Shown: piece after piece, positions 7,974-13,694 of the stretch
Layout of the letters: each line of letters starts with the position of its first letter
Numbering within the stretch: the stretch's first letter is position 1
NCBI GenBank assembly: GCA_903887275.1
Contig: CAISPD010000179.1
Span: forward strand, 16,912-80,911
DNA: 64,000 bases
Source: an uncultured Mucilaginibacter sp.
GTDB lineage: Bacteria > Bacteroidota > Bacteroidia > Sphingobacteriales > Sphingobacteriaceae
Direction of reading: 5' to 3'
Program-made: the position numbers and the translations under genes
Notes under the pieces: model-generated
The model's database searches: none
What the model saw: the letters and a program-made list of their open reading frames with translations, nothing else
What the model was told of the DNA's origin: nothing

Positions 7974-9284
7974 TCAGAACTCCACGTGCGCCCGCAAACC
8001 AAATACATTTACTGGTCCACGGTCTGCATTATAAGCCGGATGAAGGATAAACTGGTAATCGGGAGAAAGCCAGATTTTTTTCTGGAAGGCGTTGATCTTG
8101 TAATAGAGCTCGGCTATAAGTTCCGTCGAGTAATTAAGCTGACCGTCGCCAATAATAAAACCATAGCCGCCTGCCGCCAGATAAGCTCTGTGATCTGCTG
8201 AAAGTCCGTTGGCTATAAATGCAAGTCCCAATTCGTCGTCCGCCCGTTTCCAGGAGTTGCCTTTAAGCACAGCGCCGAACGAAAAAGAACGGTCAATCTC
8301 GGTAAAAAACCAGGTTTCCGTATGTCCATCGTTATAACTTGCTTTTGCGAAAACACCGAAGTCTCTGCTGAGGTATTGCTCAGCATTTATTCCAAATCCA
8401 TATTTATGCCTGCCGTAGTGCTGCGTGCTGTCAATATCAGGTGCCGAAGGATTTTGCGCCAATGCCAATTTGTAATTACCAAACTTGCCATTGTTCAGAA
8501 AGGTAAGTATCCTGAAAGCGCCTTTATTGCCGCCTATAATATATCGCTTTTCAAACTCGAGTGTTTGGGTATTGGCATCGGCTATTTTGGCATCCCAAAC
8601 AGATTGATTGGCCTGGGTTGTAACGAGGGTTAGTGCAAAACGTAATGTCCAGTCGGGCTGTCCAAGTTCGGCGGTTGCGCCAAGAACGTAACCACGGGTA
8701 TTGGCAGGGTAGTCCCAGGCCCCATTGTCCATTAATGCCCAATTCATGAATTGGCTTCGCGGATCGTGACTCAGGCTATTGTTGTCGAAAAAGTCGGCCA
8801 TGCCAAACTTGCCGATCACGAGCGAGAAGTACCGTTTGCTTTTTAGCCCGGCGAGTTGATTGATATCATCCTCGATCGTGTCTTTTTCGGTACCCCATTC
8901 AAAGGTTTGTTTAAAGTAAAGACGTGCAATGTAGATCTTGTTCTGTACTCCGCCTACCCTGAAAGTTTCACCATTCGGAAATCCGGCTACACCCAGCGTT
9001 TGACTTAAACCTGCGCCGCCCGAGATCTCCGGATTAAAATAGGCTTCGGCACCTTTCCATAGTCGTGTGCCGCCAAAAAGTGTAGAAGTGATAGACGATT
9101 GTGTTTCATCTTTTACAGATAAGCTGTTTTTACCCGAATACGGAGCAATTATTGCAGGCTTATATTGGGTTATTATGGTTTGCTGAAAATGAAGGTTGCT
9201 GCGCTGGTGCTTTAAGGTATCCTGGGCAATTACGCAGTTCAATAAGGCAATCAGAAGTATAAATGTAAAAGTATATTTTTTCAT
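7974..9284 (-). CDS. OprB-like (carbohydrate porin family) outer-membrane beta-barrel
   Basis: Signal peptide; GAWDYPANTRGY; C-terminal NADRGPVNVFGLRAHVEF ending in Phe. Confidence 0.75.
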   Translation of the reverse strand: MKKYTFTFILLIALLNCVIAQDTLKHQRSNLHFQQTIITQYKPAIIAPYSGKNSLSVKDETQSSITSTLFGGTRLWKGAEAYFNPEISGGAGLSQTLGVAGFPNGETFRVGGVQNKIYIARLYFKQTFEWGTEKDTIEDDINQLAGLKSKRYFSLVIGKFGMADFFDNNSLSHDPRSQFMNWALMDNGAWDYPANTRGYVLGATAELGQPDWTLRFALTLVTTQANQSVWDAKIADANTQTLEFEKRYIIGGNKGAFRILTFLNNGKFGNYKLALAQNPSAPDIDSTQHYGRHKYGFGINAEQYLSRDFGVFAKASYNDGHTETWFFTEIDRSFSFGAVLKGNSWKRADDELGLAFIANGLSADHRAYLAAGGYGFIIGDGQLNYSTELIAELYYKINAFQKKIWLSPDYQFILHPAYNADRGPVNVFGLRAHVEF

Positions 9285-9403: not shown

Positions 9404-12121
9404 TTAAAGCCACTGATCAAATTTTTTAATGAACCACGTTTTAACTGCCTGTGTAAGCAAACAATAACACAGCAAAATACCTAGCAGCCAGGGGAAAAAA
9501 GCAAAAGGCAAGGCTTGCATTTTAAAGGCTGCAGCCAGCGGCGAAAACGGTATGAAAATGCCAATGGCCATAATTGCCGATGTTAAAGCAACTACGGGCG
9601 CCGTAGCCCAGCTTTGTATAAATGGTATTTTACGGGTGCGGATCATATGAACGATCAATGTTTGGGATAGCAAGCTTTCTACAAACCAGCCTGTTTGGAA
9701 AAAGGTTTGATGTTCGGGCGAATTTGCTTTGAATATGAACCACATCACTGCAAATGTTGCATAGTCAAATACCGAACTGATGGGGCCAACAAACATCATA
9801 AATTTGCTGATACCCCCTGCGTCCCATTTGCGGGGTGTAACAATATAATCCTCGTCCATAAAATCCCATGGGATGGATATCTGCGACACATCATATAAAA
9901 GGTTATTGATCAGGATCTGTATCGGAAGCATAGGTAAAAATGGCAGCAAAGCACTGGCCCCCAGCATACTGAACATATTGCCAAAATTACTGCTGGCGGT
10001 CATTTTGATGTATTTGATGATATTGCCGAATGTGCGGCGGCCATAGATCACTCCTTTACGCAGTACCATCAGATCTTTTTCAAGCAGAATTATATCAGCG
10101 CTTTCTTTGGCAATATCGACTGCTGTATCTACCGAAATACCCACGTCAGCATCCCGTAGCGCTGCCGCATCATTAATTCCATCGCCCATAAATCCTACGG
10201 TATGCCCTTTAGCCTGCAATACTTTTACAACCCGCGATTTTTGCAAGGGACTGAGTTTTGCCAGAATACTGATATCGTCTATCCGGCGGGCCAATTCTTC
10301 ATCACTCATGTCTTCCAGCTCCTTGCCCAGCAGGATATTGTTAATCGGTATGCCTACATCCTTGCATATCTTTTTGGTTACAACCTCGTTATCGCCGGTT
10401 AAAACTTTAATTGAAATGCCCAGGCGGCGCAATGCCTCAATGGAAGGTTTAGCAGAGGGCTTAGCCGGATCTAAAAAGCCAATAAAGCCAGTCAGGATCA
10501 TATTGCATTCATCAGCAACTGAATAGTTTAACGGGCGCTCTTCATATTCCTTAATAGCCACAATCAGCACCCGCAAACCTTCCTCATTTAATTTAGACGA
10601 TGTTTTCAAAATGGCCTGCCGCATCTTTTCATCCATCGGGATCACGTCGTCGGTGTCTATCTGCAAACTATTATCCTCGCCCGGATCAAAAGCAAAGCTG
10701 CATAGGTCCAGCATTTCTTCTACCGCACCTTTACAAATAAGCAGGTGTTTGTGATTTTTTTCTTCCAATATCACCGACATTCGCCTGCGTTGAAAATCGA
10801 AGGGGATCTCATCTACTTTTTTATAGGATTCGCCTTCCTTCAGGCAGGAGTGAAACTCGACATGCTCCAATACAGCAAGGTCAAGCAAATTTTTTAAGCC
10901 GGTTTGGTGATAGCTATTGAGGTAGGCCCATTTCATTACTTCGCTATCTTCCAGGCCATATACGTTCAAATGCCGTTCGAGTACAATTTTGTCCATCGTT
11001 AACGTGCCCGTTTTATCGGTACACAGTATGTCCATCGCACCGATATTCTGAATAGCATTCAGCCTTTTGACAACAACCTTGCGTTTCGACATGTTAACCG
11101 CTCCTTTAGCCAGGTTGGCGGTTACAATCATTGGCAACATTTCGGGAGTTAGTCCAACGGCGATGGAGATACCGAAAAGAAATGCCTCCAGCCAATTGTG
11201 TTTGGTAAGCCCGTTGATCAAAAACACCAGCGGCACCATAACCAGCATAAAGCGTATGAGTAACCAGCTTACACTATTAACGCCTTTATCAAAACTGGTT
11301 TCGGCCCGTTTGCCAACCAATGATTTGGAAAGAGAACCAAAATAGGTATCGCCACCAGTATTTACGACAATAGCCTGCGCTGTACCACTTACCACGTTGG
11401 TGCCCATAAAGCAAACATTATTGAGTTCAAGGGGCGATTTTTTGCTAGCGCCACGATCAGCAGAATCTGTTTTTTCAACCGGTAATGCTTCGCCGGTCAA
11501 TATTGCCTGGCTTACAAATAAGTCTTTTGACTGAAGGATACGGACATCCGCTGGGATCATATCTCCGGCCGACAATAAAATAAGGTCGCCGGAAACTAAT
11601 TTTTTGATATCGATCTCCTGTTTATCCTGCCCTTCCCTTACCACAGTAGCGGTAGTTTTAACCATCGACTTCAGCTTTTCTGCAGCCTGGTTACTCCTGA
11701 ATTCCTGGATAAAACGCAGCATGGCACTTAAGAACACCATGATGCTGATTACAATAACCGTAGTATAATCCCTATCGGCAGGTGCTTTAATAATGATTAC
11801 GTCAGTAATGGAAGAAATAACGGCCAGTACGATCAATACCCCAATAAAAGGGTTTAAAAAGGCTTCAAAAAACTGGATATACCATTTAGGTGCTTTTTCA
11901 TGGGCTACTTCATTGGGCCCATAGGTGCTCAATCTTTCCCTGACTTCATCTGCTGTAAGACCTTTATCGCTGGTTTCTAACTGTTGCAGAAAATCTGCTT
12001 TACTACTCGCTGATGCTCGTTTTATCTTTAACGTTGAAGCGCCGTCAGATTCATTGGATGAATTGCCGTTCTTTTTGGCCAGAGTTTTATAAACTGAATT
12101 GAAATTTTCTCTTTTAAGCAT
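9404..12121 (-). CDS. mgtA: Mg2+-importing P-type ATPase
   Basis: DKTGT, TGEA, PEMLP, GDGINDA; MTASSNFGNMFS and NLLYD typical of MgtA/B. Confidence 0.95.
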   Translation of the reverse strand: MLKRENFNSVYKTLAKKNGNSSNESDGASTLKIKRASASSKADFLQQLETSDKGLTADEVRERLSTYGPNEVAHEKAPKWYIQFFEAFLNPFIGVLIVLAVISSITDVIIIKAPADRDYTTVIVISIMVFLSAMLRFIQEFRSNQAAEKLKSMVKTTATVVREGQDKQEIDIKKLVSGDLILLSAGDMIPADVRILQSKDLFVSQAILTGEALPVEKTDSADRGASKKSPLELNNVCFMGTNVVSGTAQAIVVNTGGDTYFGSLSKSLVGKRAETSFDKGVNSVSWLLIRFMLVMVPLVFLINGLTKHNWLEAFLFGISIAVGLTPEMLPMIVTANLAKGAVNMSKRKVVVKRLNAIQNIGAMDILCTDKTGTLTMDKIVLERHLNVYGLEDSEVMKWAYLNSYHQTGLKNLLDLAVLEHVEFHSCLKEGESYKKVDEIPFDFQRRRMSVILEEKNHKHLLICKGAVEEMLDLCSFAFDPGEDNSLQIDTDDVIPMDEKMRQAILKTSSKLNEEGLRVLIVAIKEYEERPLNYSVADECNMILTGFIGFLDPAKPSAKPSIEALRRLGISIKVLTGDNEVVTKKICKDVGIPINNILLGKELEDMSDEELARRIDDISILAKLSPLQKSRVVKVLQAKGHTVGFMGDGINDAAALRDADVGISVDTAVDIAKESADIILLEKDLMVLRKGVIYGRRTFGNIIKYIKMTASSNFGNMFSMLGASALLPFLPMLPIQILINNLLYDVSQISIPWDFMDEDYIVTPRKWDAGGISKFMMFVGPISSVFDYATFAVMWFIFKANSPEHQTFFQTGWFVESLLSQTLIVHMIRTRKIPFIQSWATAPVVALTSAIMAIGIFIPFSPLAAAFKMQALPFAFFPWLLGILLCYCLLTQAVKTWFIKKFDQWL

Positions 12122-12173
12122 CGTAGTATGATTTGCCCTGTTTTACCAGGCGGCTTAAAAGCAGACGATCCGG

Positions 12174-12224
12174 TTAGCAGGAGGTTAGAAGTTCTTTTAA
12201 AGTGCTACTCGGACCGGTATCCAT
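12174..12224 (-). CDS. Candidate mgtA leader peptide MDTGPSSTLKELLTSC (16 aa)
   Basis: ATG 12224 after an A-rich context, TAA 12176-12174; lies between the promoter and mgtA ATG. Confidence 0.5.
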   Translation of the reverse strand: MDTGPSSTLKELLTSC

Positions 12225-12246
12225 TTTTTTAATTTTTAATTTGACG

Positions 12247-12284
12247 CAAAAATAAGATTTAATTTAATGCAATGGTATTGCATT
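12247..12284 (-). promoter_or_regulatory. mgtA promoter (-7 TATTTTTG 12254-12247) with overlapping perfect palindrome AATGCAAT-GGT-ATTGCATT (12266-12284)
   Basis: Directly visible 8-3-8 inverted repeat over the -33 region. Confidence 0.6.
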
Positions 12285-12716
12285 GATCCTGCATTTGTCA
12301 CATATTCCTTTTACCACCAATTTCATTTCGGCAGCAGAGAAACCGGCAGGTAATAAAACCTCCGGGATTCTTGAATTTGGCAGACAGAATGTCTCTTTGC
12401 AAGTGCCGCAATAAAAGTGTACATGCAGGTCGTGATGCTCCTTTTTATCGCATTCCTCAGGGCATAGCGCGTACTTGGGTACACCCGTTCCGTCTTCTAT
12501 GGTATGAATCAGGCCGTTTTGCTCAAAGGTCTTTAACGTGCGATAAATGGTTGTACGATCTGCAGGCAGTAATAATTTCTCCAGATCACTCAGGCTAAGA
12601 GCATGCTGATGTTTTAAAAGCTTGTCTAAAACCAAAACCCGCATTGCGGTAGGGTTAATTTTTTTGATGGCCAGCAATTGCGTCGTTTTACCGCTTATTT
12701 TTTCCGCTATGTCCAT
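12264..12716 (-). CDS. Fur-family transcriptional regulator
   Basis: DRTTIYRTLKTF HTH, HxHFYCxxC and CDKC metal sites; ATG 12716 (track GTG 12719). Confidence 0.88.
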   Translation of the reverse strand: MDIAEKISGKTTQLLAIKKINPTAMRVLVLDKLLKHQHALSLSDLEKLLLPADRTTIYRTLKTFEQNGLIHTIEDGTGVPKYALCPEECDKKEHHDLHVHFYCGTCKETFCLPNSRIPEVLLPAGFSAAEMKLVVKGICDKCRINAIPLH

Positions 12717-12717
12717 C

Positions 12718-12749
12718 ACCGTATTACCATTGCTTTCGGGGCAAATCTA
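12718..12749 (-). promoter_or_regulatory. Fur-like gene promoter (-7 TAGATTTG) with a degenerate copy of the palindrome
   Basis: Minus AAAGCAATGGTAATACGGT (12736-12718), 14/19 match to the mgtA palindrome, just downstream of the -7 element at 12749-12742. Confidence 0.5.
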
Positions 12750-13400
12750 GGGTAAATTATCTACTTCATCATAAAACTGCTTAAGATACAGTTCCATAAA
12801 ATGGTGCCGCTGTTCGGCAAGAATTTTGCCGGTTGGGGTATTCATCTTATCTTTTAATAAGAGTAATTTTTCATAAAAATGATTGATACTGGGCGCTTGA
12901 GATGATTTATACACCTCTTTGCTCATATTTAAATTAGGGCTGATCTCGGGGTTATAAATTTCGCGCCCTTTAAATCCTCCATAACTAAATGCCCTTGCTA
13001 TCCCAATAGCACCAATGGCATCCAGCCGGTCAGCATCCTGCACAATAGCTAATTCATTTGATTGAAAACTAATCTTATCAAAGCCCGATTTAAAAGATAT
13101 ATTTCTGATGATCTGCTGAACATGCTCAATGATCTCGGGTGCAATAGCCATTGATGTTAAAAATTCTCCAGCCAACGCCGGTCCCAGTGTTTCATCTCCA
13201 CCGTGAAACTTACTGTCGGCAATGTCGTGCAGTAAAGCAGCCAGTTCAACAACCAGTAGATCACAAGGCTCTGATTTGGCTATGTGCCGGGCATTGGTTA
13301 AAACCCGCTGTATGTGCCACCAATCATGCCCACCTTCGGCATGCTGTAATGTTGCCTTAACAAAAGAGACTGCTTTACTGATGATTTCGTTGTGTTCCAT
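12747..13400 (-). CDS. HD-domain phosphohydrolase (YedJ-like)
   Basis: GHDWWHI, ALLHDIAD, QDADRLDAIGAIGIAR, NHFYEKL. Confidence 0.9.
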   Translation of the reverse strand: MEHNEIISKAVSFVKATLQHAEGGHDWWHIQRVLTNARHIAKSEPCDLLVVELAALLHDIADSKFHGGDETLGPALAGEFLTSMAIAPEIIEHVQQIIRNISFKSGFDKISFQSNELAIVQDADRLDAIGAIGIARAFSYGGFKGREIYNPEISPNLNMSKEVYKSSQAPSINHFYEKLLLLKDKMNTPTGKILAEQRHHFMELYLKQFYDEVDNLP

Positions 13401-13445
13401 ACGGCTATAAAATTAGATGTATTATAGCTGTATTGCATAACTTCA

Positions 13446-13694
13446 TTACACTTTTTGCAGAACCTGCATCCGTTCAGCACCGATCAGCAGGACTGGATCA
13501 GTCTCGAGAATTTCTGCAATATGCAGTAGTCTTTCAACGGTTATGCGAGTATATCCCAATTCGATCTTACTATAGGCATTTTGCGATATGCGCAATTTGG
13601 CTGCCAGGTATTCCTGGGTATAATTCCGGTGTTCCCGGGTTTTTCTGATGTTAGCAGCTACTTGTTCGATCCTGGTATTAAGTGCATCCTTCAT
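13446..13694 (-). CDS. XRE-family HTH regulator
   Basis: YTQEYLAAKLRISQNAYSKIELG; ATG 13694 within track ORF. Confidence 0.85.
   Translation of the reverse strand: MKDALNTRIEQVAANIRKTREHRNYTQEYLAAKLRISQNAYSKIELGYTRITVERLLHIAEILETDPVLLIGAERMQVLQKV

Follow-up and report, generated by a model that had tools for sequence, protein, structure and literature searches.

A conserved mgtA leader in Mucilaginibacter with a short upstream ORF and two mutually exclusive RNA folds: a candidate translational attenuator

Results

The mgtA locus and its leader

The DNA analysed here, called the window throughout, is a 64,000-nt stretch from an uncultured Mucilaginibacter sp., a soil bacterium (GCA_903887275.1, contig CAISPD010000179.1, positions 16,912-80,911 of the forward strand). 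The element under study is the 5′ leader of the magnesium-pump gene mgtA, which lies entirely on the minus strand and forms a module of ~110 nt to which the first codons of mgtA (MLKRE..) also belong (Table 1). A sequence-only reading of the window had described a promoter, a 16-aa upstream ORF (uORF) and a gap of 52 nt between the uORF stop and the mgtA ATG (12121), and all three were found on the minus strand where that reading had placed them. A TAnnTTTG-like box stands at the equivalent place in related leaders when these are compared, and transcription would be expected to start a few nucleotides 3′ of the -7 box, ~15 nt before the uORF ATG. A U-tailed terminator had been described as missing, and no such intrinsic terminator-like site was found in the leader. 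The 19-bp palindrome farther upstream, in the -33 region of the promoter, is likely an operator, and would belong to the context of the leader and not to the switch discussed below.

Table 1. Features of the mgtA leader and neighbouring genes (window coordinates)
Feature	Position	Strand	Basis or remark
Fur-like gene (Fur family match)	12264-12719	-	upstream neighbour of the leader
19-bp palindrome, AATGCAAT-ACC-ATTGCATT, over the last codons of the Fur-family gene	12266..12284	-	read from sequence
-7 promoter element, Bacteroidota type, TATTTTTG (consensus TAnnTTTG)	12247..12254	-	read from sequence
uORF, 16 codons + TAA, MDTGPSSTLKELLTSC	12174..12224	-	ATG at 12224, TAA 12176-12174; A-rich tract ahead
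P1 5′ strand (S1), CGGUCCG, within uORF codons 3-5	12210..12216	-	minimum-energy fold and alignment A6
Alternative helix 5′ strand, UCCUG-CUA-ACCGG (uORF tail, stop codon, post-stop bases)	12170..12182	-	RNAduplex and covariation
P1 3′ strand (S2), CGGAUCG, 1 nt after the uORF stop; shared with the alternative helix	12166..12172	-	fold and alignment
P2 5′ strand (anti-start), UCUGCUUUUAAGC	12153..12165	-	fold and covariation
P3 hairpin, CCUG-GUAAAA-CAGG	12137..12150	-	fold and covariation
Alternative helix 3′ strand, CUGGU-AAAA-CAGGG (P3 5′ arm, loop, 3′ arm)	12136..12149	-	RNAduplex and covariation
P2 3′ strand, GCUUAAAAGAGA (G of the mgtA AUG and next 11 nt)	12108..12119	-	fold and covariation
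mgtA, Mg2+-translocating P-type ATPase, 905 aa	9404..12121	-	TIGR01524 1287.6 bits, NF011702 1350.6 bits (NCBIfam), Pfam domains
OprB-family porin gene	7974-9284	-	directly 3′ of mgtA

A closed fold covers the mgtA start

The 141-nt leader of the window folds at -32 kcal/mol (z = -3.1), a value that none of 200 shuffled sequences equalled, and the single-sequence folds of 24 leaders mostly have the same architecture. The pairing of TCCGAGTAGCA with TGCTAACCGGA (9 of 11 positions) that had been noticed at the outset is present and forms part of helix P1 in the minimum-energy fold, and the CCTG-GTAAAA-CAGG hairpin seen before the start (12150-12137) is helix P3. Conservation was measured on a covariance-model-based alignment of 31 leaders (A6), which leans towards this closed, or OFF, structure. 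On A6 the OFF fold pairs 81.6% of cells, versus 29-47% with partners slid by 1-3 columns, and 20 of its 28 pairs change on both sides; none of 500 shuffles reached the observed values, a significance that is overstated because the leaders are related.

All nine core pairs of P2 change on both sides, with 87.7% of cells paired, and three of the four pairs of P3 covary, with 94.2% of cells paired. The covariation extends into the coding sequence: codon 2 of the downstream ORF reads CUU, CGU, CGC or CAU, and the facing bases of the anti-start strand change with it to AAG, ACG, GCG or AUG; pair 93:139 reads CG 17 times, AU 6, GU 3, UG 2 and UA once. The pairs of P1 (18:77 to 23:71) are 74-100% paired, and across leaders the P1 3′ strand begins 0-4 nt after the uORF stop, the outer P2 pairs following ~9 nt after it. 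A comparison of cognate with non-cognate strands gave p = 0.57 for P1, a test left uninformative by the invariance of the 5′ strand. As in attenuators of the erm/cat kind, the initiation region is sequestered in the default fold, here by P2.

Another pairing proposed from the window had a different fate. TTAAAAG (12200-12194) and CTTTTAA (12161-12155) are indeed complementary in the window, but this complementarity is not conserved (cognate -2.34 versus non-cognate -2.49 kcal/mol, p = 0.71), and the pair was rejected as a conserved anti-sequestor; conserved pairing joins CTTTTAAGC to the mgtA start, GCTTAAAAG (12119-12111). RNAalifold run on a plain MAFFT alignment, in which indels were misplaced, returned only an invariant 4-bp hairpin (GGAU/GUCC), and that alignment was replaced by the covariance-model alignment.

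Intergenic DNA rich in A+T often contains short ORFs and small hairpins, and the unconserved TTAAAAG/CTTTTAA pairing would suit the view that the leader is an ordinary A+T-rich 5′ UTR whose ORF and hairpins arose by chance. Across the 31 aligned leaders, the conservation of the uORF and of the helices, with covariation, exceeds chance. The same view is contradicted by the conservation of the leader in 25 genomes of the genus and beyond, by two covarying helices, by the z-score of -3.1 and by a strict link to mgtA and mgtC, and we find it scarcely credible.

A second helix excludes the closed fold

Alternative pairings in the leader had been predicted from the sequence of the window, and they exist and covary, but the main one had been missed: the whole of P3, 5′ arm, loop and 3′ arm alike, can pair with a strand made up of the uORF tail, the stop codon and the bases after it. 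The duplex has an energy of -12.2 kcal/mol in the window (RNAduplex) and of -11.5 to -30 kcal/mol in 31 of 31 leaders, and cognate strands pair better than non-cognate ones (mean -18.5 versus -15.2 kcal/mol, permutation p < 0.0002), as is also the case for P2, the positive control. The alignment A6 was built without fitting to this helix; on it, 78.2% of cells pair, versus 29-64% when slid, and 10 of the 14 pairs covary. One post-stop column holds A or G and covaries with the column opposite it in the P3 5′ arm, which holds U or C; in P1 the post-stop column faces an invariant U that tolerates both bases.

Formation of the alternative helix is incompatible with P1 and P3 and leaves the anti-start strand within a short loop. 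Two further properties of erm/cat attenuators are found here: the leader ORF overlaps the first segment of a set of mutually exclusive helices, the P1 5′ strand lying in codons 3-5, and a conserved alternative helix is incompatible with the sequestering fold. When a ribosome was masked over Gly4/Pro5, the nascent RNA of the window folded into exactly this alternative helix. In masked folding at equilibrium the start region did not open clearly: its mean unpaired probability was 0.44 for free RNA, 0.51 for a stall at Pro5 and 0.38 for a ribosome at the stop codon, with P2 of the window formed in all three cases. Because the alternative helix of the window (-12.2 kcal/mol) is weaker than P2 and P3 together, a model in which it acts as a switch needs co-transcriptional kinetics.

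The uORF is conserved as a reading frame

The uORFs of related leaders consist of MD(T/A/S)GPS and a variable part, for a total of 15, 16 or 17 codons, and the restriction to these lengths implies that indels come in threes. In 25 distinct uORFs of the kind found in the window (type A), the variable part contains no in-frame stop, against 12 and 8 stops in the other two frames, and its residues are not conserved. The stop codon is fixed in position and varies in identity (TAA, TAG or TGA). The first six codons undergo only synonymous changes except at codon 3 (Thr, Ala or Ser), the variants seen including all four Thr codons, GAT/GAC, GGT/GGC and, once, CCG to CCA. Conservation of the leader peptide had been suggested as a check on the initial reading, and it was borne out: position, frame, length and the first six residues of the uORF are kept before orthologous mgtA genes and also before mgtC. 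The lack of conservation in the variable part is typical of regulatory leader peptides, in which translation itself matters and the product does not. The tract 5′ of the uORF is A-rich, and A-rich upstream tracts promote initiation in Bacteroidia, the class that is blind to Shine-Dalgarno sequences (PMC6847099). Judging from these sequence features, the uORF is presumably translated in the cell.

At the Pro and Ser codons, CCG and AGT, the third base hardly varies despite even codon usage, and the conservation of MDTGPS is therefore at least partly an RNA constraint. Such a constraint would be expected if the RNA itself were the sensor, as a riboswitch or a Mg2+-dependent fold in which high Mg2+ stabilises P1, P2 and P3 and hides the start, the uORF being incidental or a helper. 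A change from Pro to Ser in the one distant leader, with pairing nevertheless kept by a G-U wobble, fits the same explanation, for which the M-box and the enterobacterial mgtA leader provide precedents. It accords poorly with a frame that is open in 25 of 25 distinct variable regions, with indels in threes and a stop of fixed position; moreover, the variable loop of ~27 nt has no conserved core resembling a ligand pocket, and no match to the M-box or Mg_sensor models was obtained. We consider direct sensing by the RNA unlikely.

Distribution of the leader

Orthologous mgtA genes of relatives were picked by protein similarity alone and their upstream regions were then read. Six of eight such loci carry a small uORF starting MDTGPS or MDAGPS, in which the Thr codon varies synonymously. 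For a wider search, a covariance model (R1) was seeded from the window sequence alone, to avoid pattern bias, relatives were aligned, the model was rebuilt as R2, and whole genomes were searched. R2 matches 25 of 151 Mucilaginibacter genomes; the genome of the window has one copy, a second was not found in it, and its mgtC gene is without such a leader. Culturable carriers include Mucilaginibacter frigoritolerans ATCC BAA-1854, M. dorajii JCM 16601 and M. achroorhodeus MJ1a. Variants out of reach of a fixed 18-mer pattern were recovered by the model, with Ser in place of Thr, CCA for the Pro codon CCG, TAG or TGA as the stop, and uORF lengths of 15 and 17 codons. A sample of 150 further genomes from across the class gave one match, G031, from a different family, and the other nine genomes of that family gave no R2 match, so that the distribution is patchy. 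The G031 leader (L190 = G031:C23:13923-17046) has a divergent uORF, MDPGSSCKKLLI, with Pro at codon 3 and UCG (Ser) at codon 5, where pairing is kept by the G-U wobble; it is followed by an OprB-like porin gene, with mgtA further downstream. An all-genome scan with an 18-mer pattern gave many additional cases, and also many matches in unrelated high-G+C phyla, which had neither the short ORF nor mgtA and were set aside as chance.

Gene context and the link to Mg2+

Thirty-three of the 34 distinct type-A uORFs precede mgtA and/or mgtC, and the sole exception has only a short mgtA-like fragment downstream. Because the leader is tied to Mg2+ genes, Mg2+ is named here as its putative signal. In 12 of the 34 distinct type-A leaders, the window included, mgtA itself is fused to the leader. 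The remaining ones have a second ORF (ORF2) of 52-67 codons, which opens with the conserved start AUG CGU AAA AGA GAA AA and is followed by mgtA or mgtC, and in many relatives the distance from leader to mgtA is 200-1700 nt, with a short second ORF. The N-terminus of MgtA in the window (MLKRENFNS..) resembles that of ORF2 (MHKRKNTNS..).

Gene orders in related loci include a Fur-like gene, leader, ORF2, MgtC, OprB porin and YceI, and, in another example, a histidine kinase, leader, ORF2, MgtC, a MntP-like gene, MgtA and a response regulator. The palindrome co-occurs with a Fur-like gene in 13 related loci, before both mgtA-type and mgtC-type leaders. Loci that have neither the palindrome nor the Fur-like gene have a histidine kinase upstream instead. 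The OprB porin stands after mgtC in one relative (L059) and between leader and mgtA in another (G031); its placement suggests an outer-membrane partner in the same Mg2+ regulon.

ORF2 was seen at L007, L008, L032, L042, L043, L059, L094, L104:6102-6305(-) and other loci, none of them in the window. Its N-terminus, MRKREK, is conserved, a G-x-x-S/T-F-A/S-F/L motif occurs ~40 residues in, and the ORF often overlaps the mgtC start (ATGA). A search of Pfam gave no match to ORF2, and its relatives in the databases number only six, the single source-named one being a hypothetical protein.

Discussion

A proposed ribosome-dependent switch

We propose that the leader is a ribosome-dependent translational attenuator of mgtA, an erm-like leader-peptide switch with two mutually exclusive folds, in which a pausing ribosome frees the start codon; we hold this to be the probable reading, with modest confidence. 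In the OFF state, P1 (uORF codons 3-5, GGUCCG, with post-stop bases) and P3 would form together with P2 over the mgtA start codon and the next 11 nt. Shine-Dalgarno sequences are ignored by the ribosomes of Bacteroidota, which rely on start regions that are A-rich and free of structure. Because initiation in Bacteroidia proceeds without Shine-Dalgarno pairing and depends on such an open start region, mgtA translation should be blocked by P2. In the ON state, the uORF tail, stop and post-stop bases would capture the whole of P3, leaving the anti-start strand in a loop and the mgtA start free.

The position of the ribosome on the uORF would determine which of these states is reached. With no ribosome present, P1 and then P3 and P2 would form, giving OFF. 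A ribosome at the stop codon would cover the 5′ strand of the alternative helix and allow P3 and P2 to re-form, again giving OFF. A ribosome lingering on the first 6-8 codons, the conserved MDTGPS part, would instead cover the P1 5′ strand, and the uORF tail left free would capture P3 during transcription, opening the start codon and turning mgtA ON. Most likely, a shortage of Mg2+ would be the signal, making the ribosome slow or unstable over the early codons of the uORF. In this model, Mg2+ sensing, translation of the uORF, the pause and the direction of switching are the parts that we infer.

Conserved folds next to a uORF could also serve another end, in which the uORF provides constitutive translational coupling, ribosomes that finish it unfold P2, and control by Mg2+ is purely transcriptional, exerted here by the Fur-like repressor with its palindrome and, in other species, by two-component systems. 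The distances from the stop to the P1 3′ strand (0-4 nt) and to the outer P2 pairs (~9 nt) are as such coupling would have it, and a conserved operator-like palindrome and a regulator gene lie directly upstream. Nevertheless, the uORF ends 52 nt short of the mgtA ATG, the P2 core stays closed when folding is simulated with a ribosome at the uORF stop, and coupling of this kind leaves no role for the covarying alternative helix or the conserved first six codons. This arrangement appears improbable to us.

As to the output of the switch, the sequence-only reading had left a choice between Rho-dependent and translational control, and of the two it is the translational one that is directly supported, the start codon lying in a covarying helix and an intrinsic terminator being absent. 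That absence would also be in keeping with Rho-dependent transcription attenuation as the main output, in which the folds expose or hide a Rho loading site and sequestration of the start is secondary. An untranslated mgtA 5′ region would be accessible to Rho, and the 200-1700 nt with a short second ORF between leader and mgtA in many relatives could accommodate such a mechanism. On the other hand, the 52-nt spacer has no apparent C-rich, G-poor loading tract, pairing of the downstream start codon is the one feature common to all leaders, and Rho could coexist with the translational attenuator rather than displace it. We judge it quite unlikely that Rho provides the main output.

An early pause in the uORF would have a parallel in MgtL of E. 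coli, whose translation aborts within the first six residues, MEPDPT, more so at low Mg2+ (10.1101/2021.02.02.429294). A survey of intrinsic ribosome destabilisation (IRD) sequences took four D, E or P residues in an N-terminal window of six as its criterion (10.1101/2021.02.02.429294); MDTGPS contains one D and one P and falls below this number. The uORF has its Pro codon at position 5, after Gly. In extension of the attenuator model, MD(T/A/S)GPS might be a new, very short N-terminal module for ribosome pausing or drop-off that reads cytoplasmic Mg2+ at the Gly-Pro step, a portable sensor used on at least two platforms, the 110-nt type-A switch and a leader of ~440 nt with a uORF of 39-45 codons. 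We offer this idea tentatively and regard it as rather doubtful; if it is true, the MgtL principle would have been invented independently in a phylum that initiates without Shine-Dalgarno pairing. Against the attenuator model itself, the distant G031 leader swaps the codon-5 Pro for Ser with pairing kept, though it has Pro at codon 3.

Comparison with known leaders

Control of Mg2+ transport by leader peptides is a textbook example whose known cases come essentially from enterobacteria, and few cis-acting translational switches are known in Bacteroidota. In enterobacteria, mgtA is controlled by the progress of ribosomes through the mgtL uORF, and the Salmonella/enterobacterial mgtA leader acts mainly via Rho-dependent termination. 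The Mucilaginibacter leader resembles the MgtL system (RF01056, Mg_sensor) in having a short ORF (16 aa here, 17 aa in MgtL) in the 5′ leader of a gene for a Mg2+-importing P-type ATPase, in the enclosure of this ORF by a stem, in its alternative RNA folds and in the critical first six residues. It differs in that its uORF has one Pro and one Asp, whereas MgtL has EPDP and four Pro; in its conserved output helix, which sequesters the start codon where the enterobacterial leader is mainly Rho-dependent; and in the host class, which makes no use of Shine-Dalgarno sequences.

A scan of positions 11000-13500 against Rfam (E up to 10) gave no family match, Mg_sensor and M-box included. The initial reading had regarded the leader as an independently evolved switch analogous to MgtL, and the comparison sustains that view: because the leader has neither similarity to MgtL nor a match to the Mg_sensor or M-box model, an independent origin is the simplest reading. 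The leader is thus likely an independent counterpart of the E. coli/Salmonella magnesium switch.

The mgtCBR leader of Salmonella, with its uORFs mgtM and mgtP, offers a second parallel, as the leader in relatives precedes mgtC, or mgtC and then mgtA, often with a second short ORF behind it, which makes two leader ORFs ahead of the Mg2+ genes. The peptides, however, are unrelated, the leader here has no Pro-Pro-Pro run and no known ATP-sensing adenine tract, and the window is without a second ORF, the ORF2 start being fused to mgtA.

Mechanistically, the proposed switch comes close to ermC/cat attenuation, with which it shares four segments, segment 1 inside the leader ORF, that pair as 1:2 and 3:4 or instead as 2:3, and a regulated start region that is hidden by default and would be exposed by an early stall in the leader ORF, here a presumed one. 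Unlike in ermC/cat, the start codon with downstream bases takes the place of a Shine-Dalgarno site as the hidden element, segments 2 and 3 flank the sequestering strand, and the inducer would be a physiological state (Mg2+) and not an antibiotic.

The M-box (ykoK, RF00380) is likewise a cis-acting RNA upstream of Mg2+ transport genes, and in Mycobacterium tuberculosis it controls a small uORF that belongs to its expression platform (PMC12810186). The leader described here is much smaller (~110 nt) and has no conserved metal-binding core. Neither the window region nor the genome as a whole matched the M-box model, which did match the controls from B. subtilis and L. lactis.

Full-text literature searches returned no paper containing MDTGPS and none describing a Bacteroidota mgtA leader, so that a conserved control element before mgtA, able to hide or expose its start codon, has apparently gone undescribed. 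The element is small (~110 nt) and sharply defined, both of its folds are supported by covariation, and the genes with which it is associated are mgtA, mgtC and that of an OprB-type porin. The element offers a directly testable example of convergent evolution of translation-based Mg2+ sensing, a natural model for gene regulation by start-codon sequestration alone in Bacteroidia, and a marker of a Mg2+-limitation regulon in Mucilaginibacter and its relatives.

Further leaders and mgtA copies in related genomes

At locus L072 (MAG Mucilaginibacter sp. RYN_329) the type-A leader is intact, the downstream ORF ends after 46 codons and a short mgtA-like fragment follows, mgtA being probably disrupted there. 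A second type of leader was observed in other Mucilaginibacter genomes (L004, L005, L037, L039, L054, L116, L124, L134 and L155). It shares the first six codons (MDAGPS, GGC-CCG-AGU) and has a uORF of 39-45 codons, MDAGPSYSYQHD...LLFCTSxS; the whole leader measures ~440 nt, with a conserved box, CAGCGGUCCGGGCUGA, ~250 nt downstream, before mgtA. Genome G010 carries both leader types, before two mgtA copies. The second of these copies (G010:C23:89526-92165, leader in L182) is 77% identical to the mgtA of the window, lies ~950 nt downstream of a 15-codon type-A uORF and has one in-frame TAG, which may mark a pseudogene or a sequencing error.
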